Below are positions 1,863-17,695 of a stretch of 18,230 bases of DNA, piece by piece (the stretch's first letter is position 1; each line of letters begins with the position of its first letter). A model generated the notes under the pieces. The model ran no database searches and was not told where the DNA came from. It saw only the letters and a list, made by a program, of their open reading frames with translations. Position numbers and translations under genes: made by a program. Source of the DNA: a virus. The stretch is taken from the UHGV virus genome UHGV-1777858. One strand, written 5' to 3'.

Positions 1863-2654
1863 ATGAGCGAGAAATTAAAGATAGTCTATCGCCCATTACA
1901 AGAATTGTCACCGTATGCGCACAACGCCAGGACGCACAGCCCTGAGCAGGTGGCACAACTGGTAGAAAGTATTAAGCAATTCGGCTGGACTAATCCGGTG
2001 CTGATTGACGAAAAGGGCGAAATTATTGCGGGTCACGGTCGTGTTATGGCGGCTGAAATGCTCAAAATGGATTCTGTTCCGGTCATTGTTCTGTCTGGCC
2101 TGACGGATGAGCAGAAAAAGGCGTACCGCCTGGCAGATAATCGCCTGCCGATGAATGCTGGCTGGGATGAAGATCTGTTGCGGATGGAGCTGTCGGACCT
2201 AATCAATGCTGATTTTGATGTCTCCCTGACAGGCTTCATCCCGACAGAAATTGATGAACTGTTGACGGATGTTTTGCCCGGTACAGGAAATGAGGAGGAG
2301 CCGTATACGACGAAAATTGATACGCCTGTTTATGAGCCGTCGGGCGGTAAACCGGATATCAGTGAACTGTACGACGATACGAAAACTCAGGAGCTGATCA
2401 GCCGGATACGTTCGGCGTCCCTTGAGCCTGATATTGAGAAATTCCTCCTGTGTGCGGCAGAACGTCACACGGTGTTTAATTTCAGCAGAATTGCGGACTA
2501 TTACGCTCACGCCCCCTCTGAAATTCAGTGTTTTTTCGAGGAGTCGGCGCTGGTGATCATTGATTATCAGCAGGCTATTGAAAATGGATTTGTCCGGATG
2601 ACGCAGCGCATGGTGGAGATCATGCATGGTGGTGAGGAGGAGGAATATGCGTGA
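1863..2654 (+). CDS. ParB-like nuclease domain (ParB N-terminal domain) protein with a C-terminal domain of unknown function
   Basis: 263 aa. The N-terminal ~100 aa (YRPLQELSPYAHNARTHSPEQVAQLVESIKQFGWTNPVLIDEKGEIIAGHGRVMAA...YRLADNRL) has the ParB/sulfiredoxin-type arrangement with a glycine/arginine box (AGHGRVMAA). The C-terminal ~160 aa are acidic and I do not recognise them. SD AAGG lies 4 nt upstream of the ATG. Confidence 0.75.
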   Translation: MSEKLKIVYRPLQELSPYAHNARTHSPEQVAQLVESIKQFGWTNPVLIDEKGEIIAGHGRVMAAEMLKMDSVPVIVLSGLTDEQKKAYRLADNRLPMNAGWDEDLLRMELSDLINADFDVSLTGFIPTEIDELLTDVLPGTGNEEEPYTTKIDTPVYEPSGGKPDISELYDDTKTQELISRIRSASLEPDIEKFLLCAAERHTVFNFSRIADYYAHAPSEIQCFFEESALVIIDYQQAIENGFVRMTQRMVEIMHGGEEEEYA

Positions 2655-3546
2655 TGATTTTTGCGCCTTTATTCTGACTCACGGGCGACCGGACAAAGTT
2701 CTGACTTACCGGACGTTGCGTCGTGCTGGCTATACCGGGAAAATTTTTATCGTTGTTGATGAATTTGGTGAACAGGTGCTGGTGTTTTCCAAAGCCGATA
2801 TCGCCAGTCGTTTTGACGAAGCCGATAATTTCTGTGACCGCCGCTCAATTTTTTACGCCCGTAATGCCTGTTTCGACCTGGCAAAACTGGTCGGGTGTAA
2901 ATACTTCATTCAGCTCGATGATGATTATCACGAGTTCCAGTTTCGGGTGGATCGCAACTATGACCAGGCCTATTTTCCGATAAGGAAACTGGATGCGATC
3001 CTTTCTGAAATGCTGGCGTACTACGAATCAATACCTGCTCTTTCCATCGCTATGTCGCAGGGCGGGGATTTTCTTGGTGACAATGGCGGCCATGCTTCGT
3101 GGGTGAAACGCAAGGCAATGAACAGCTTTATCTGTTCGGTTGATCGACCGTTCTCATTCATGGGGCGCATTAACGAGGATGTGAATACGTACACGAATCT
3201 CGGTCGCTGTGGTGAATTGTTTATGACGATCGGTGCTGTCCAGTTAGGGCAGAAACAGACGCAGAAAAACAGCGGCGGAATGACCGAGCTGTATCTGGAT
3301 TCCGGAACCTACGTTAAAAGTTTTTACTCCGTCATGTATGCGCCGTCGTGCGTAAAAATCTCACTGATGGGTGCCAGCCATAAACGCATTCACCATCAGG
3401 TCACCTGGAACAACGCTGCAGTAAAAATCCTTCACGAAAAATACAGGAAGAAGACACCCTGCATATCAATGGGGGTGACAAATGATTCCGTATTCGAAAG
3501 TCGAGTCTCTGGCAGCGTGCCGGATGACTGCACAACAAATCGCTGA
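2647..3546 (+). CDS. GT-A fold protein, family-2-glycosyltransferase-like (putative glycosyl- or nucleotidyl-transferase; function unknown)
   Basis: Start ATG 2647 follows a strong SD (GAGGAGGAGGA) and overlaps the ParB-like stop as ATGCGTGA, suggesting translational coupling. The N-terminus matches the GT2 pattern: beta1 AFILTHGRPD, then GKIFIVVDEFG (compare EIIVVDDGS), then ARNACFDLAKLVGCKYFIQLDDDY (compare aRNxGxxxAxGxYixFLDxDD, DxD near residue 91-93). No transmembrane segment is evident. Confidence 0.55.
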   Translation: MRDDFCAFILTHGRPDKVLTYRTLRRAGYTGKIFIVVDEFGEQVLVFSKADIASRFDEADNFCDRRSIFYARNACFDLAKLVGCKYFIQLDDDYHEFQFRVDRNYDQAYFPIRKLDAILSEMLAYYESIPALSIAMSQGGDFLGDNGGHASWVKRKAMNSFICSVDRPFSFMGRINEDVNTYTNLGRCGELFMTIGAVQLGQKQTQKNSGGMTELYLDSGTYVKSFYSVMYAPSCVKISLMGASHKRIHHQVTWNNAAVKILHEKYRKKTPCISMGVTNDSVFESRVSGSVPDDCTTNR

Positions 3547-6115: not shown

Positions 6116-7522
6116 ATGGCTGATATATCAACACCCAACCTCGACTATAACGATATGCTGGAGGCGTGGGATATTAACGACGCACTGATGGGCGGTACGC
6201 TTGAAATGCGCAGGCAGGGGGAAAATTATCTCCCAAAATGGCCTAACGAAGATGAAGACGCTTATAAAAAACGCCTGTCTGCGGCTACGCTACTTCCTGT
6301 GTATGAAGAAAGCATCAAGCAAAATATTGGGCGCATATTTGCAGAGCCGACAGTATTGAGTGAGGAAACGCCGGCAAAAATCAGGGAATATGCAGAAAAT
6401 ATCGACATGGAGGGAAGCCGACTGGATGTGTGGGCGCAGCAATTTTTCAGCCTCGCATTTCAGTATGGTGTGGCACATGCGCTGGTGGACTATCCACGAA
6501 CGGATATGAAAGAGATTCGGACAAAAGCCGATGAAAACGCGGCCGGTAGTCGTCCGTACGTTACGATGCTGAATCCACGCCAGGTTATTGGATGGAAATC
6601 GAAAGTTGAAAAAGGGAAAGTTGTTCTCACTGATTTGCGTATAAAAGAGGTCATCATTATTGATGGTGATGATTTCGGGCAGAAGAAGGTGGAGCAGATC
6701 CGCCATATTATGCCCCGTCGAGTTGAAATTTATCGACGTAGCGAAGGCACTAATGGCGAATCTGTCTGGACGCTTCATGAGTCATGGAATACCAGCCGTG
6801 ATGATATTCCTCTGGTAACACTGTACACGAAGAAAACAGGATTTATGCGTGGTACACCGCCATTGCTTAATCTTGGCTTGCTGAATATCAAGCACTGGCA
6901 AAGCCAGAGCGAGCAGGACAATATTCTTCATGTTGCCCGCGTTCCATTGCTGGTGGCCTACGGGCTGGACAGGAATGAAGAACTGACGGTTGGTGCATCC
7001 ACCGCTACGATTTTTGAGGACAGAACAAAAAATGGCCTCGAATATGTTGAACATAGTGGCGCAGCGATAGAATCTGGCGAAACATCACTTGAGAAGCTGG
7101 AAAATCAGATGCGTCATGCCGGCGCTAAACTTCTGCGTGCTGAAAATACATCCACCAAATCTGTTGATCAGACTAATGAAGAGCGAATGCAGGAAAACTC
7201 GCCGCTTTATACAATGGCGAACTCCCTCGAAGATGCCCTCGATAATATTCTCCAGATAATGGCGGAATGGATCGGAGAGAGTTGCGGTGGCAATGTGGAT
7301 GTGCGCACTGAACTGGATGTATCTGCCCAGGTGTTTGACTCATCCTCCGCGCTGGCTGTTCAGTCATTGCGTCAGGGCGGTGATATACGTCAGATTGATG
7401 CGATTCGGGTGTTGCAGGCGTTGAAATTTATCGATCAGGATTCCCGTCCAGAGGAAGTGATCGATGAATTAAAAAATCAGAGTGTAATGCTGATGGAAAT
7501 CAATGATGCAAACCGTGAATGA
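6116..7522 (+). CDS. Phage portal protein (probable)
   Basis: 468-aa ORF immediately following terL (stop TAA 6111-6113, ATG 6116), with an acidic C-terminus. Position and size fit a portal; family assignment is from memory of similar prophage proteins and is not verified. Confidence 0.7.
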   Translation: MADISTPNLDYNDMLEAWDINDALMGGTLEMRRQGENYLPKWPNEDEDAYKKRLSAATLLPVYEESIKQNIGRIFAEPTVLSEETPAKIREYAENIDMEGSRLDVWAQQFFSLAFQYGVAHALVDYPRTDMKEIRTKADENAAGSRPYVTMLNPRQVIGWKSKVEKGKVVLTDLRIKEVIIIDGDDFGQKKVEQIRHIMPRRVEIYRRSEGTNGESVWTLHESWNTSRDDIPLVTLYTKKTGFMRGTPPLLNLGLLNIKHWQSQSEQDNILHVARVPLLVAYGLDRNEELTVGASTATIFEDRTKNGLEYVEHSGAAIESGETSLEKLENQMRHAGAKLLRAENTSTKSVDQTNEERMQENSPLYTMANSLEDALDNILQIMAEWIGESCGGNVDVRTELDVSAQVFDSSSALAVQSLRQGGDIRQIDAIRVLQALKFIDQDSRPEEVIDELKNQSVMLMEINDANRE

Positions 7523-8618
7523 ACGGCTGCGTGATGAATCAATTGCTCATGCAGTCTGGATATCCCGCTATAGCACTGGCGTGGCTGCCAGAATGGTGAA
7601 AATACTGAATGACAGCGATGCGGAACTTACTGCTCGCCTGCTGATAGCACTGGACAGCCTCGATCCAGGTAGTTTTACCGTTAAGCGCCTGGAGTCACTT
7701 CTGGCGAGCGTCAGAGAGGTTAACCGCACTGCTATTAACAGCATGTTTACCAGTCTCTCCGGAGAGCTGAACGAGCTGGCAATTTATGAGGCTGGTTATC
7801 AGTTAAGTCTGTTTGATTCTATGCTACCTGATTTTGTTGCTGATGTTCACCCTCTGGTTGGTATCTCTCCTGATGCACTTTATGCCGCTGCAATGGCGCG
7901 ACCATTTCAGGGACGACTGCTCAGTGAGTGGGCCTCAGATCTTGAGGCGGATCGGCTCAGACGCATAACAAATACAGTGCGTCAGGGTTTTTTGCTGGGG
8001 GATACCAATGAGCAGATCGCAAGAAAAATTCGGGGACATGTCAGTAAGGGATTTCAGGATGGTGCATTGCAGATGAGCCGGGCTAATGCGGCCAGCATTG
8101 CAAAAACAGCGGTTGGACATCTTGCTGCTACTGCCCGTGAGAGTTTTGCCAGCGCGAATAATGATTTGATTAAGGGTAAGCAATGGTTATCAACGCTTGA
8201 TAATCGTACTACGCCACAATGTCGAATCAGGGATCGCCTCAAATATACGCTGAATAATAAACCTGTAGGTCACAGCGTGCCTTATTTGCAGGGGCCGGGA
8301 AAAATTCATTTCTGCTGCCGCTCAACGGAAACGTTCATTCTGAAATCAGCGAAGGAACTGGGTATTGATGTTCGCGATATTTCCCCGGCTGAGCGGGCCA
8401 GCATGGATGGCGTGGTGGCCGGAGATACAACCTACAGGGAATGGTTTTTGCGTCAGCCTTACACCAGACAAAAACAGATTGTGGGGGAAACCCGAGCAAA
8501 GCTGATTCGGGATGGTGGTATGTCGCCAGATGAATTTTACACCGATAAAGGCGAATGGCTGACGCTGAAGCAGCTCCGTGAGCGTGATGCACAGGTATTC
8601 AGAAAAGCAGGGATTTAA
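7503..8618 (+). CDS. Head morphogenesis protein (Mu F / SPP1 gp7-like minor head protein)
   Basis: 371 aa, overlaps the portal 3' end and lies between portal and scaffold. Sequence character (e.g. ...GISPDALYAAAMARPFQGRLLSEWASDLE...) is consistent with the Phage_Mu_F family, not verified. Confidence 0.75.
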   Translation: MMQTVNERLRDESIAHAVWISRYSTGVAARMVKILNDSDAELTARLLIALDSLDPGSFTVKRLESLLASVREVNRTAINSMFTSLSGELNELAIYEAGYQLSLFDSMLPDFVADVHPLVGISPDALYAAAMARPFQGRLLSEWASDLEADRLRRITNTVRQGFLLGDTNEQIARKIRGHVSKGFQDGALQMSRANAASIAKTAVGHLAATARESFASANNDLIKGKQWLSTLDNRTTPQCRIRDRLKYTLNNKPVGHSVPYLQGPGKIHFCCRSTETFILKSAKELGIDVRDISPAERASMDGVVAGDTTYREWFLRQPYTRQKQIVGETRAKLIRDGGMSPDEFYTDKGEWLTLKQLRERDAQVFRKAGI

Positions 8619-8637: not shown

Positions 8638-8665
8638 AGGCTACCTTCGGGTGGCCTTTTTTATT
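8638..8665 (+). terminator. Rho-independent terminator (UUCG tetraloop) after the head morphogenesis gene
   Basis: AGGCTACC-TTCG-GGTGGCCT (8-bp stem with one G-U pair) followed by TTTTTTATT. Confidence 0.6.
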
Positions 8666-8722
8666 GCTGCGATCCGGATGGTGAGCAGCGTAACTGTCGG
8701 AAGACTTAAACCAGGTACTAAT

Positions 8723-8860
8723 ATGAAACTGAAAACGGTCGAGATTAACGGAAAACAATACGCAGAAATTGATACTGCTGGCCTGCCAGTTTATGTGCAC
8801 GACGATGGTAAAGAAATTGGCTTCGATGCACCGCTGGCGACAAAAAAAATTACAGAATAG
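8723..8860 (+). CDS. Scaffold-like protein, N-terminal fragment (frame ends just after an A8 tract)
   Basis: MKLKTVEINGKQYAEIDTAGLPVYVHDDGKEIGFDAPLATKKITE then stop. The reading frame continues in the +1 frame across the A8 run at 8842-8849 into the next ORF. Confidence 0.55.
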   Translation: MKLKTVEINGKQYAEIDTAGLPVYVHDDGKEIGFDAPLATKKITE

Positions 8861-9482
8861 CGAGGCAAAAAATCATCGCCTGGCTAAAGAAGCTGCAGAG
8901 GAAAAACTGGCTAAGTTTGCCGCTATCGAAGACCCGAAGAAGGCGATCGAGGCACTGGAAATGCTGTCAAAAATCGACCAGAAAAAGCTGCTCGATGCGG
9001 GACAGGTTGACCAGGTTAAGGCAGAAATTACGAAAAATTTTCAGCAGCAATTAGATGAAGAAAAGCAACGCTCTCAGATGCTGGAGAAGCAGCTTTACGA
9101 TTCTATGATTGGCGGTAGTTTTGCGGGTTCAAAATATATTGCCGATAAAATTGCGATCCCGGCAGATTTATTACAATCACGCTTCGGGCAGGCATTCAAA
9201 GTGGAAGAAGGGAGGATCGTTGCTTATGACGCTTCCGGCAACAAAATTTATTCCCGCGCGAAGCCTGGCGAACTGGCGCAGTTTGATGAGGCGCTGGAGT
9301 TCCTTGTCGAAAATTACCCTCAGAAAGACTACATCCTGAAAGCCAGTGGCAACAATGGCGGCGGCTCCCGTCCGACACAGCATGATATTGGTCAGAAAAC
9401 GATGAAACGCTCTGCTTTTGATGCACTGGATGTTGCAGGTAAGCAAAACGCATTGAAAGACGGTATCACAATCGTTGATTAA
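8826..9482 (+). CDS. Scaffold-like protein, main portion (coiled-coil-rich); likely the same gene as 8723-8860, disrupted by a frameshift
   Basis: Frame open from 8769. The product is rich in charged, helix-forming residues (AKEAAEEKLAKFAAIEDPKKAIEALEML...QQQLDEEKQRSQMLEKQLYD) and lies between the head morphogenesis and major capsid genes, the usual scaffold position. No convincing RBS for an independent start. Confidence 0.6.
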   Translation: MHRWRQKKLQNSEAKNHRLAKEAAEEKLAKFAAIEDPKKAIEALEMLSKIDQKKLLDAGQVDQVKAEITKNFQQQLDEEKQRSQMLEKQLYDSMIGGSFAGSKYIADKIAIPADLLQSRFGQAFKVEEGRIVAYDASGNKIYSRAKPGELAQFDEALEFLVENYPQKDYILKASGNNGGGSRPTQHDIGQKTMKRSAFDALDVAGKQNALKDGITIVD

Positions 9483-9580: not shown

Positions 9581-10720
9581 ATGGCTGGAAATACCCTGAC
9601 CGGGTTGATCCCGACTATTTATACCGCCCTGGATGTTGTATCCCGTGAGCAGGTAGGTTTTATCCCTGCGGTAGCAAAAAACGCAAAAGCTGACGCCGCA
9701 GCAAAAGATCAGACGGTAACCGCGCCAGTTGCGCCTGAGGCGAAAACCGAAGATATCGTACCGGGGCCGTCAGCTCCGAATACCGGTGATCAAAATATTG
9801 GCACTGTTGATGTAAAAATTACTAAATCCAAAATGGCACCTGTTAAATGGAATGGTGAAGAACAACTGGCTCTTGGTCCTTCAGGGACTTACAACACCAT
9901 TCTGGCTGATCAGTTCAAGCAGGCTTTTCGCGCCCTTGCAAACGAGGTTGAGGCTGATCTTGGTGCGTTGTATTTCGGTGCTTCCCGCGCCGTGGGAACC
10001 GCAGGGACAACGCCGTTTGGTGTTAAAGATGATCTTTCTGATGCTGCTCTGGCTCGTCAGGTTCTGGAGGATAACGGCGCACCGACAACCGATCTGCAGA
10101 TGGTGCTTGGCTCCACTGCCATTGCTAATTTGCGCGGAAAACAGTCTGTATTGTTTAAAGTGAATGAATCCGGCACTGAACAGCTACTGCGTGAGGGCGT
10201 GTTGGGGCGTCTGGAGGGATTCAATATTCACAGTTCGGCAGGTGTGAAACGAGCGCCAAAGGTTGCTGCAACTGGTTATCTCGTGAATGGAGAGAAAAAA
10301 GAAGGCGATGTTCTTATTTCCATTGATACTGGTTCGGGGAGTATTTCTGCAGGTCAGATTGTTACGTTCGCTGGTGATCCGAATCAGTATGTTGTGGCAG
10401 CAGCGACCAGCAATCTGATTACTCTTGCAGCGCCCGGACTGCGTCAGGATCTGGCCGATGATACTGCCATCACAGTTGTTGGGGCCTTTACTGCAAATAT
10501 GGCGTTTGATCGCAACGCGTTTCTGCTGGCATCCCGTACTCCGGCAATGCCGGAAGGTGGCGATAATGCTGATGATGTAATGAATGTTACGGACCCGATT
10601 TCAGGGATTACGTTCCAGATTGCACTGTATCGTCAGTATCGCCAGGTGCGCTATGAAGTTGGACTGGCATGGGGTGTTTCATCAGTGAAGCCGGCACATG
10701 GTTGTCTGATTCTTGGTTAA
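9581..10720 (+). CDS. Major capsid protein (probable)
   Basis: 379 aa from ATG 9581 (SD AAGGA at 9566-9570; the ORF track starts at TTG 9488). Lies after the scaffold gene and is followed by a strong terminator, consistent with a highly expressed coat gene. Family not verified. Confidence 0.7.
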   Translation: MAGNTLTGLIPTIYTALDVVSREQVGFIPAVAKNAKADAAAKDQTVTAPVAPEAKTEDIVPGPSAPNTGDQNIGTVDVKITKSKMAPVKWNGEEQLALGPSGTYNTILADQFKQAFRALANEVEADLGALYFGASRAVGTAGTTPFGVKDDLSDAALARQVLEDNGAPTTDLQMVLGSTAIANLRGKQSVLFKVNESGTEQLLREGVLGRLEGFNIHSSAGVKRAPKVAATGYLVNGEKKEGDVLISIDTGSGSISAGQIVTFAGDPNQYVVAAATSNLITLAAPGLRQDLADDTAITVVGAFTANMAFDRNAFLLASRTPAMPEGGDNADDVMNVTDPISGITFQIALYRQYRQVRYEVGLAWGVSSVKPAHGCLILG

Positions 10721-14461: not shown

Positions 14462-16960
14462 ATGGCAGAGCAAACCTCGCGTCTCGCAATAATTATTGAT
14501 AGCACTGGAGCAAAAAATAATGCTGACAATCTGACCTCCTCATTAGTCAAAATGACGCAGGCCGGGGAAACTGCTGCAAATAGCACAGGGAAAGTGACTA
14601 AGGCAACAGAAGATGAGAAGAACGCGCTCGCAAAATTAAAAGCAGCTATTGATCCAGTTGGTGCCGCAATTGATACTGTCGGTCGACGCTATTCTGAATT
14701 AAAGAAATTTTTCGATAAAGGGCTTATTGATAAAGAAGAATATGAATTTCTTGTCCGTAAACTTAATGAAACCACAGAGGAATTGAGCGGGGTTGCGCAA
14801 GCGCAGAGAGAAGCCGAGAAGGCCGGAAAACTTGCTGCCGCCCAGCAGGAAGCGCAGGCTCAGGCCTTTCAAAGAATGCTGGACAAGATCGACCCTCTGG
14901 CTGCGGCGCTAAGAAATCTTGAACAACAGCAGGATGAACTTAATGCTGCGTTTGCATCCGGGAAAATAAATGGTTCTCAGTTTGAGAATTATAGCCGAAA
15001 AATACAGGAAACACGGCGAGAGCTTACCGGAGAGGCTCAGGCAGAGCGAGAAGCAGCAAAAGCGCATGATGAACAGGTTGCTGCTTTGCAACGTCTGATT
15101 GCTCAACTTGACCCTGTCGGAACTGCTTTTAATCGTCTGGTAGAACAACAGAAACAGCTCAATGAAGCAAAAGCTAAGGGGATGCTCTCTCCTGAAATGT
15201 ATGAGGAACTTTCTGGAAAACTTCGTGCTATGCGGAGTGAGCTTGAGGTTACTCAATCTCAATTAAGCAAAACCGGAATGTCGGCAAAACAAACGGCTTT
15301 TGCTATGCGCATGTTGCCTGCACAAATGACGGATATTGTTGTTGGGTTGTCCACTGGTCAGTCGCCTTTTATGGTGTTAATGCAGCAGGGCGGCCAGCTA
15401 AAAGATATGTTCGGTGGGATTGGCCCGGCGATCAAAGGTGTTGGTTCTTATGTGCTGGGATTAATTAATCCTTTTACCCTGGCCGCAGCAGCCGTTGGCG
15501 TCTTAGGGCTGGCTTACTATAAAGGCTCTCAGGAGCAGGACGAATTTAATAAATCTCTTATTCTTACCGGAAATCAGTTGGGGACAACCAGCGGGCAATT
15601 GGCCGATATAGCTCAACGTGCCGGGAATGCGGCTGATTCGACAACTGGCGCTGCGGCGGCAGTATTAAACCAGCTTGTGCGTTCGGGAAAGGTAGCGAGC
15701 AGTTCGCTGGAGCAAGTGACGACAGCGATAGTAAAAACGAGCGAAGTAACAGGAATATCAACCGAACAACTGGTTAATGACTTCAATGAAATTGCAAAGG
15801 ATCCTGTCAGTGCCATATCAAAACTTAATGATCAGTACCATTTTCTGACAATTGCGACTTATAACCAGATTAAGGCGCTACAGGATGAAGGGAACCAGCA
15901 GGAGGCCGCCCGCATTGCGACAGAAGCATACTCATCCTCAATGATCCAGCGCACCAACCAGATTAAAGAAAATCTTGGTTATCTTGAGACTGCATGGAAA
16001 GCTGTCGCAGACTCCGCAAAATGGGCATGGGATTCCATGCTGGACATTGGCCGTGAGGCCTCCCTTGATCAAAAAATCTCAGATGTTCTCCGTCAAATTG
16101 ATGAAATAGAAAAAAATACCCGACCCGGAGTTTTCGGGTTAGGTGGCATTGGAGATGGCGGAGCTCAAAATAAAAGGCTGGCACGATTAAAGCAGCAATT
16201 GGGCGTACTTCAAGCAGAAAAAATTGCTCAGGACGTCCTAAATTCATCAATAAACGATTACAACAAGCGACAACAGGAAGGAATTGAACTCAGACAGAGA
16301 GCAGATGCCTTTTCAAAACAATATCAGACCCGGGAGCAGCAGAGAGCTAGTGAACTTGCAAAACTGGAAAAGCTAAAGAGTCAGTATTCAAAGGAAGAAT
16401 ATAATAATTTTATCGCTCAAATAAATGAGCGTTATAAAGATCCAAAGCAACCAAAGGCGAAAGGTTATTCGGATGATGCTGCCCAACGAATGATTGATCA
16501 TCTGAATCAACAGAATGCGTTACTAAGTTCACAAACTGAATTAACCGTTAAATTAAGTTCCTCTGAACAGGAACTGGTTAAGTGGCGTCAGCAGATTGCC
16601 GACCTGGAGTCACGACCGTCATCGAAATTAACCCAGGATCAGAAATCGCTTCTCTTACACCGGGAAGAAATAACCGCGTTGATGGAGAAAAATGTTGCGA
16701 TTGAAAAAAATAACAGGCTAATCAAGGAATCCGCCGAAATAGCTGCATGGCGTGATTTATTGCAGGCTTCGATTGATAATCGTCAACAGGGGTATGATAT
16801 TCAGATTGCTGGTTATGGGGTTGGCGATAAAAATCAGCAACGCCAGCAGGAATTACTGCGGATTGAACGTGAATATAACAATCAGCGTCTGCAACTTGAA
16901 CGTGACTATGCAGATAAATCCCGTGGGATGTCAAATCATGTTTTTCAGGAGAAAATGTAG
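14462..16960 (+). CDS. Tail tape measure protein, N-terminal 832 codons (ends at an in-frame TAG)
   Basis: Long alpha-helical, coiled-coil-rich ORF with three ~75-aa tandem repeats near the N-terminus and a hydrophobic segment ([58 protein letters not shown]). Sits after G/GT. The same frame continues open after TAG 16958-16960. Confidence 0.85.
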
Positions 16961-17695
16961 GCTCTGAATGATGCTCTGGAACGAGAAAAAGAAATTGTCA
17001 GACAGAAAAACGAGCAGCTCGATATTCAGGCAGGAGACTGGGTTAGTGGTGCCTCCCAGGGATTCAATAACTGGCTGGATGACACTAAGGATATCAGTGA
17101 GCAGATAAAATCAACCACGACTCAGATGTTTGATGGAATGACCGATGCGCTGGGTGATTTTGTCACGACAGGCAAGGCAAATTTTCGTTCTTTCGCTACT
17201 TCCGTGATTTCGGATCTTAGTCGAATAGCATTAAAGGCTTCAATTACTGGGATTTTCGACAGCATTAGTAACAGTTCTTCGGGGGGGATTTTAGGAACTA
17301 TCGGGAGTGCTATTAGTAAATTTATTCCGAATGCAAAGGGCGGTGTTTATGAGTCTCCGTCATTGAACACGTATTCGAACGGTATTTATGATTCCCCGCA
17401 ATTTTTTGCTTTTGCAAAAGGGGCTGGTGTTTTTGGTGAGGCTGGTCCGGAAGCCATTATGCCATTAACACGAACATCCGATGGTTCTCTTGGTGTCAGA
17501 GCTATTAATAGTAAAAGTGGTAATGGAGGCGGAGATATTACCTATGCCCCTGTATACCAAATCACTATTCAAAATGACGGCCAGAATGGAGAGATTGGCC
17601 CTCAGGCAATAAAAGCACTTATGGGGATGGTTGATCAGCGGGTGCAGGGCAATCTGTTAAATATGCGACGTGATGGGGGAATGTTAAGTGGCTAA
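16961..17695 (+). CDS. Tail tape measure protein, C-terminal segment (same frame, downstream of the in-frame TAG; first ATG at 17126)
   Basis: No stop codon between 16961 and 17695 in the tape measure frame, and no plausible start before ATG 17126. The sequence (…GKANFRSFATSVISDLSRIALKASITGIFDS…) resembles the C-terminal region of lambda-like tape measure proteins. Confidence 0.75.
   Translation, partial: ALNDALEREKEIVRQKNEQLDIQAGDWVSGASQGFNNWLDDTKDISEQIKSTTTQMFDGMTDALGDFVTTGKANFRSFATSVISDLSRIALKASITGIFDSISNSSSGGILGTIGSAISKFIPNAKGGVYESPSLNTYSNGIYDSPQFFAFAKGAGVFGEAGPEAIMPLTRTSDGSLGVRAINSKSGNGGGDITYAPVYQITIQNDGQNGEIGPQAIKALMGMVDQRVQGNLLNMRRDGGMLSG

Follow-up and report, generated by a model that had tools for sequence, protein, structure and literature searches.

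The window, which is the whole 18,230-nt stretch of viral DNA analyzed here (UHGV virus genome UHGV-1777858), is a Rac-type prophage of Escherichia coli according to its gene order, its Pfam matches, and the annotation of its relatives. A megablast search with the whole window found at least 80% of it covered in 695 complete E. coli genomes; the top genomes, which include ES1 and a strain named "ST38", were 99.9% identical to the window. The genes are arranged as follows (window coordinates; strand given for the genes around the locus under study):

250–1725: trkG, the first gene in the module order
1863–2654: gene with a ParB/Srx N-terminal domain, after trkG
2647–3546: TAGT (TET/JBP-associated glycosyltransferase) gene, PF20691, directly 5′ of the terminase genes
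Between the TAGT gene and the portal gene: small and large terminase genes
6116–7522: DUF4055 portal gene
7503–8618, + strand: Mu-F-like minor head protein gene (Pfam PF04233; annotated "phage minor head protein" in relatives)
9581–10720, + strand: P22-like major capsid (coat) protein gene (Pfam PF11651 and annotation in relatives)
3′ of the coat gene: head–tail and tail genes, ydaY, and the tape measure gene

Two features of this neighborhood lie outside the gene described below. The ParB/Srx gene and the TAGT gene may together form a candidate DNA-modification module of the Rac-like prophage, of which a ynaK remnant is all that survives in K-12-like and B strains. In addition, a terminator-like hairpin (AGGCTACC TTCG GGTGGCCT, window 8638–8657, then TTTTTATT, with the T-run reaching to about 8667) sits in the 104-nt gap between the stop of the Mu-F-like gene (8618) and the start of the scaffold-like gene (8723). 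A terminator inside a late operon is an unusual placement, and such sites occur in this region at the chance count.

The split gene and its protein family

The scaffold-like gene between the minor head and coat genes is distributed over two reading frames, and its parts are the following:

8723–8860, + strand: 5′ fragment of the DUF6651 scaffold-like gene, 45 codons from ATG 8723 to a premature TAG at 8858–8860
8826–8828, + strand: candidate start ATG of the downstream frame, without a Shine-Dalgarno sequence, for a putative 218-aa C-terminal fragment
8842–8849, + strand: A8 homopolymer at its wild-type, in-frame length (ACA AAA AAA ATT = T K K I)
8855–8857, + strand: junction of a 5-bp deletion, AGCTT being gone between 8855 and 8856 (equivalent to GCTTA between 8856 and 8857)
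8856–9482, + strand: 3′ part of the gene, ancestral N47–D254 and the stop codon, now shifted to +1 with respect to the start
8949–8963, + strand: candidate internal restart, GAGG at 8949–8952 followed after 8 nt by ATG 8961, for a putative 173-aa C-terminal fragment

The initial annotation had described this gene as split by a frameshift, and the two-frame layout, together with the coordinates of the ATG, the A8 run, and the stop, was confirmed from the sequence. The product of the first frame (MKLKTVEING...LATKKITE in translation) is identical to residues 1–45 of the intact 254-aa protein of CP133856 and spans a small N-terminal β domain and the first turns of a long helix. An SD-like AGG (8713–8715) is located 7 nt before ATG 8723, and of all the products, the 45-aa stub alone has a start in proper context. 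The second frame has no stop between a TGA (8730–8732) and a TAA (9480–9482) and reads ...QKKLQNSEAKNHRLAKEAAEEKLAKF...; the 3′ part of the gene (8856–9482) holds the coiled-coil region and the DUF6651 domain and has no further change compared with the intact allele. The A8 run is inside the frame overlap (8733–8857), that is to say, between the TGA of the second frame and the TAG at 8858 of the first. Three A8/T8 runs occur in the window, compared with 2.94 expected from shuffles, and the A8 run is unremarkable by frequency.

The downstream frame had been thought to have no convincing start or ribosome-binding site. This description holds for ATG 8826, which has no Shine-Dalgarno sequence and is the start chosen by the gene caller on a sister contig (NODE_1402 of ERZ1756020, described below), but not for ATG 8961, which is preceded by GAGG, so that candidate starts do exist. 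Internal restart at ATG 8961 may be possible, and a 173-aa product beginning at the matching ATG is the gene-caller choice (P0078) in alleles of this gene with an A7 or A9 tract, described below.

With AGCTT re-inserted, the restored protein matches Pfam DUF6651 (PF20356) over residues 116–226 with 203.5 bits against a cutoff of 27, aligns end to end with phrog_784 (1–253 on 1–249/250), and matches phrog_206, "head scaffolding protein", at 4e-23. Homologs (n = 1873) were found in Citrobacter, Klebsiella, Raoultella, Serratia, Erwinia, Pantoea, Yersinia, Salmonella, Gilliamella, Azotobacter, and other hosts, and the complete members are single ORFs of 249–254 aa with 100% coverage, in which the pattern KI[ST]xLN[GS]EAK is conserved over the segment affected in the window. 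The window does not contain the single ORF of ~250 aa by which members of DUF6651/PHROG 784 are recognized; judged from its sequence, the window gene is a pseudogene of the DUF6651 family and not an intact member. The matches to DUF6651 and to PHROG 784/206, and the location, with the Mu-F-like minor head gene on the 5′ side and the P22-like coat gene on the 3′ side, agree with the earlier placement of this gene in the scaffold position. We regard the function "scaffold", predicted from position and profile, as a reasonable assignment; a literature search for the scaffold and capsid of the Rac prophage found nothing specific.

The AlphaFold (AF2) prediction for an E. coli homolog with 85% identity, which is of modest confidence (mean pLDDT 68.9, pTM 0.33), consists of a confident β domain (residues 1–33), long helices (residues 36–132), and a C-terminal α/β domain. 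The lesion at residue 45/46 is located at the start of the long helix and cuts the β domain from the remainder. A BFVD fold search gave weak matches to GP20/scaffolding proteins (TM about 0.2), which are suggestive at best. A PDB sequence search with the intact protein returned no solved relative, and a match to uL11 (E = 0.016) was rejected as spurious.

The 5-bp gap and the A-run

Comparison between the window and its intact relatives revealed that (i) CP026723, CP133856, and ON470581 (a predicted prophage) have the same A8 and, after window 8855, the 5 nucleotides AGCTT in pairwise and multiple alignments, and the A8 is likewise found in the intact genes of E. coli B and ET82; (ii) the gene in the intact relatives is a single 765-nt ORF encoding a 254-aa protein (WP_001551057.1, "DUF6651 domain-containing protein"), which reads ...TKKITELNSEAK... 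through the A8; (iii) the relatives have ACA AAA AAA ATT ACA GAG CTT AAT AGC (T K K I T E L N S) in the start-codon frame, compared with ACA AAA AAA ATT ACA GAA TAG C in the window allele, the deletion thus turning GAG CTT AAT AGC into GAA TAG C; and (iv) the sequence at the deletion junction is GACAAAAAAAATTACAGAATAGCGAGG, with a microhomology of 1 nt. The gene encoding WP_001551057.1 in E. coli 266917_2 and ES1 has the same neighbors and the same A8 and is 100% identical in DNA to the window gene except for the 5-bp gap; that gene is intact, whereas the loss of AGCTT leaves the window with a 45-aa stub and the 3′ part out of frame. Over 18.2 kb, the full set of differences between the window and CP133856 consists of 5 SNPs, a 33-bp deletion at 2760, and the 5-bp deletion, the last being the sole difference inside the gene.

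The loss of AGCTT alone accounts for the frame shift. The initial annotation had placed the frameshift inside the A8, as a slipped-strand mutation, a sequencing error, or slippage; however, the tract is 8 nucleotides long in the intact orthologs, and the lesion lies 6 nt downstream of it. The tract length would differ from that of intact orthologs in a slipped-strand pseudogene, and here it is A8 in both. In addition, related prophages encode a single gene at this locus, and not the two separate genes that the initial annotation had named as a refutation. From these alignments, the gene is very probably genuinely split, and by an ordinary small deletion with no slip in the A8. A repeat-mediated deletion was considered and rejected, the junction microhomology being just 1 nt. 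The rest of the gene is unchanged, and the deletion is therefore apparently recent.

The A-run does vary in length in other strains. At least 15 Logan contigs, drawn from several sequencing runs and including L022–L027, have an A9 tract with AGCTT kept (...AIKKNYRA*), a recurrence that suggests a real lineage allele over random error. An A7 tract with AGCTT kept (...KKLQSLMAR...) was found in three contigs (L028–L030) and in CP178642 (E. coli VTB96777v), and the products P0144 and P0147 imply an A6 allele. The A7 and A9 alleles are frameshifted, and the gene calls on them are a short N-terminal ORF and a 173-aa DUF6651 ORF. Since A7 and A9 break the gene when AGCTT is present, A8 is the in-frame, functional length of the tract. 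These alleles and the window allele are alike in that the same gene is disrupted by small indels that lie no more than about 15 nt apart, with similar gene calls; they differ in that the A-run is changed and AGCTT kept in the former, whereas the A8 is kept and AGCTT lost in the latter. The view of the A-run as a slip-prone site thus applies to this tract elsewhere, but in the window the A8 is untouched, and in those other assemblies the change of tract length breaks the gene.

The same variants bear on whether the window sequence conceals a true A7 or A10, through either a slipped-strand mutation or a homopolymer sequencing error. An A7 or A10 tract would indeed join both frames arithmetically, as had been pointed out, and the tract is prone to indels in other datasets (A7 and A9, with A6 implied). 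However, joining the frames would give 252 aa with A7 and 253 aa with A10, not the ~258 aa proposed, and the ancestral protein has 254 aa. The A7 reconstruction, ...TKKLQNSEAK..., is also not the original protein, since the ancestor reads ...TKKITELNSEAK... and the conserved I-[ST]-x-L-N motif, I-T-E-L-N in this protein, would be lost from both the A7 and the A10 reconstructions. Moreover, the intact orthologs have exactly A8, with the start-codon frame passing through it, the missing AGCTT explains the shift by itself, and A7 and A9 break rather than repair the gene in relatives. A7 or A10 reads are not needed to explain the split. A slip in the A8 is already refuted for the window by the alignments, and we assign next to no probability to it.

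Occurrence of the deletion allele

The abundance of the 5-bp deletion in complete E. coli genomes was assessed with an 80-nt probe over the window junction and an 85-nt probe for the intact allele. The 80-nt junction matches 753 complete E. coli genomes with a best identity of 94.1%, which corresponds to the 5-nt gap, and a 100% match to the deletion junction was found in 0 of these 753 genomes. The 85-nt intact probe matches all 753 at 95% identity or more. In 30 evenly spaced sampled records, the intact match was ungapped in 29, the exception being CP178642, which has the A7 tract and is annotated "frameshifted". The deletion junction pattern had 0 matches in scans of the GTDB representative genomes, the JGI metagenomes, and IMG/VR.

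The same junction, the A8 followed by TTACAGAATAGCGAGG, is present in contig NODE_1402 of the ENA metagenome assembly ERZ1756020 (15,378 bp, SPAdes-style). This contig was found by a look-up of exact products; the gene calls on it are 69 aa and 218 aa, the 218-aa product carries PF20356, and both products occur only on NODE_1402 within a collection of 15 billion proteins. Over 15.4 kb, 4 SNPs separate NODE_1402 from the window, which suggests that the contig is independent of the source of the window. An exact look-up of the 45-aa product was discarded as evidence for the deletion: all 10 contigs that it returned are truncations of the intact allele at contig ends (...ACAGAG[CT]), which reflects a selection bias.

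The rarity of the allele raises the alternative that the 5-bp gap is an artefact of assembly or sequencing and that the gene is intact in the organism. The absence of the allele from the 753 complete genomes that have the locus and from the three collection scans would fit this alternative, as would a second private deletion in the window, the 33-bp deletion at 2760. By contrast, the 5-bp gap is located outside any homopolymer or repeat, with a microhomology of 1 nt, and the identical junction recurs in a separately assembled contig whose SNPs differ slightly from those of the window. A gap that is not in a homopolymer and that recurs in another assembly with differing SNPs argues for a real, rare allele, and we consider an artefact improbable.

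The 33-bp deletion (window 2759–2760) is in frame and removes 11 codons, TGATGAAGATAAGACACGGAATCAGTACATGGC, from the TAGT gene compared with CP133856 and CP026723. NODE_1402 begins exactly at window 2760, which is the 3′ edge of the 33-bp deletion; this start would fit a branch in the assembly graph between alleles with and without the 33-bp deletion in the sample.

Slippage, prophage decay, and annotation

A real deletion could still be leaky. Transcriptional slippage that shortens the A8 to A7 in the mRNA, or a +1 slip of the ribosome on A AAA AAA A, would restore the frame if it occurred within 8733–8857, where the A8 lies, and would yield some near-full-length scaffold of 252 aa (...TKKLQNSEAK...) with the predicted junction peptide LATKKLQNSEAK. 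In other systems, slippage at A8/A9 runs is known to rescue frameshifts: Baranov et al. (2005) described how transcriptional slippage at A/T runs compensates for frameshift mutations (PMC1088944), and Atkins et al. (2016) discussed the concept of the "savior indel" (PMC5009743). Like these systems, the window has a slippery run just 5′ of the lesion and before the premature stop. Unlike them, the A8 of the window needs a deletion-type slip, and the arrangement has no conservation. According to the passages on gfp reporters in PMC6260861, any slippage signal from E. coli RNA polymerase needed at least 8 A's, shorter runs being inactive, and these passages report no detectable deletion-type rescue on poly(A). 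The rescued protein would also miss the conserved ITEL segment, and the relatives have one ORF, with no conservation pointing to selection for recoding. Meaningful rescue by slippage is therefore unlikely, and we see only a very slim chance that the lesion leaks in this way.

Programmed recoding was likewise considered and rejected: the two-frame arrangement is confined to the window and a single contig, whereas the 753 genomes and the protein family have a single ORF. A slippery sequence is present within the frame overlap (A8 at 8842–8849), but it is ancestral and at chance frequency. The A8 could also be conceived of as a reversible switch, in which an A8-to-A7 slip in the DNA, or rarely in the mRNA, restores 252 aa in the deletion background. 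Natural A6, A7, and A9 variants of the tract exist (A6 by implication), and we hold such a switch to be highly improbable, if marginally less so than leakage by slippage. If it were true, the lesion would turn head assembly of the prophage "off" in a leaky or revertible way and would not be a dead end.

The preferred reading remains an ordinary deletion, for which the following sequence of events is proposed. The deletion of AGCTT at 8855^8856, six bases 3′ of the unchanged A8, shifts the frame and brings a TAG into frame two codons on; the gene now encodes the 45-aa N-terminal stub; and the coiled-coil and DUF6651 portion would be left untranslated, or at best be weakly translated from an internal ATG. 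Loss of scaffold function would be the likely outcome, while a C-terminal fragment translated from ATG 8826 or ATG 8961 might keep coat-binding activity.

The deletion occurs in a lineage with other signs of decay, among them the private 33-bp deletion in the TAGT gene. The tape measure gene (window 14462–17695) has one in-frame stop (16958–16960; ...FQEKM*ALNDALE...), past which its frame continues into a lambda-type C-terminal domain. The same split is found in close E. coli relatives (PGAP, "internal stop") and in ON470581; the stop may be an inherited nonsense mutation, with a read-through site as the less likely alternative. The Rac-like prophage is probably already unable to make tails. 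In other E. coli and Shigella, the same DUF6651 gene is affected by IS1 truncation, in-frame deletions, and C-terminal frameshifts. In ET82 (CP101005), the DUF6651 gene is cut short by an IS1A insertion, with a deletion that extends as far as the tail tube gene. E. coli B (CP115178) has an intact DUF6651 gene, the immediate neighbors of which are the ynaK remnant and a tail fibre gene.

The window shares its island and its markers (trkG, the ParB-like ynaK, and ydaY, with rrrD and the lysis genes upstream in relatives) with the cryptic Rac prophage of K-12 and B, and progressive decay of the structural genes is common to both. The window prophage keeps an almost complete head and tail module, whereas E. 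coli B has lost the head genes flanking DUF6651. The window gene combines the features of a pseudogene in a degrading prophage, namely an indel relative to intact orthologs, a premature stop, recurrence in NODE_1402, and other signs of decay nearby. It is an ordinary deletion pseudogene in a decaying prophage. We infer that the deletion is most simply neutral decay in a lineage that already has the tape measure stop.

For annotation, the locus should be recorded as a frameshifted DUF6651 scaffold-like pseudogene due to a 5-bp deletion. The ancestral sequence is regained when AGCTT is put back after 8855 and the A-run is left as it is, and a homopolymer "fix" would create a protein that never existed; a homopolymer in a frame overlap need not be the site of the frameshift. 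For the prophage itself, the deletion adds another decay allele to a Rac-like element that is probably defective.
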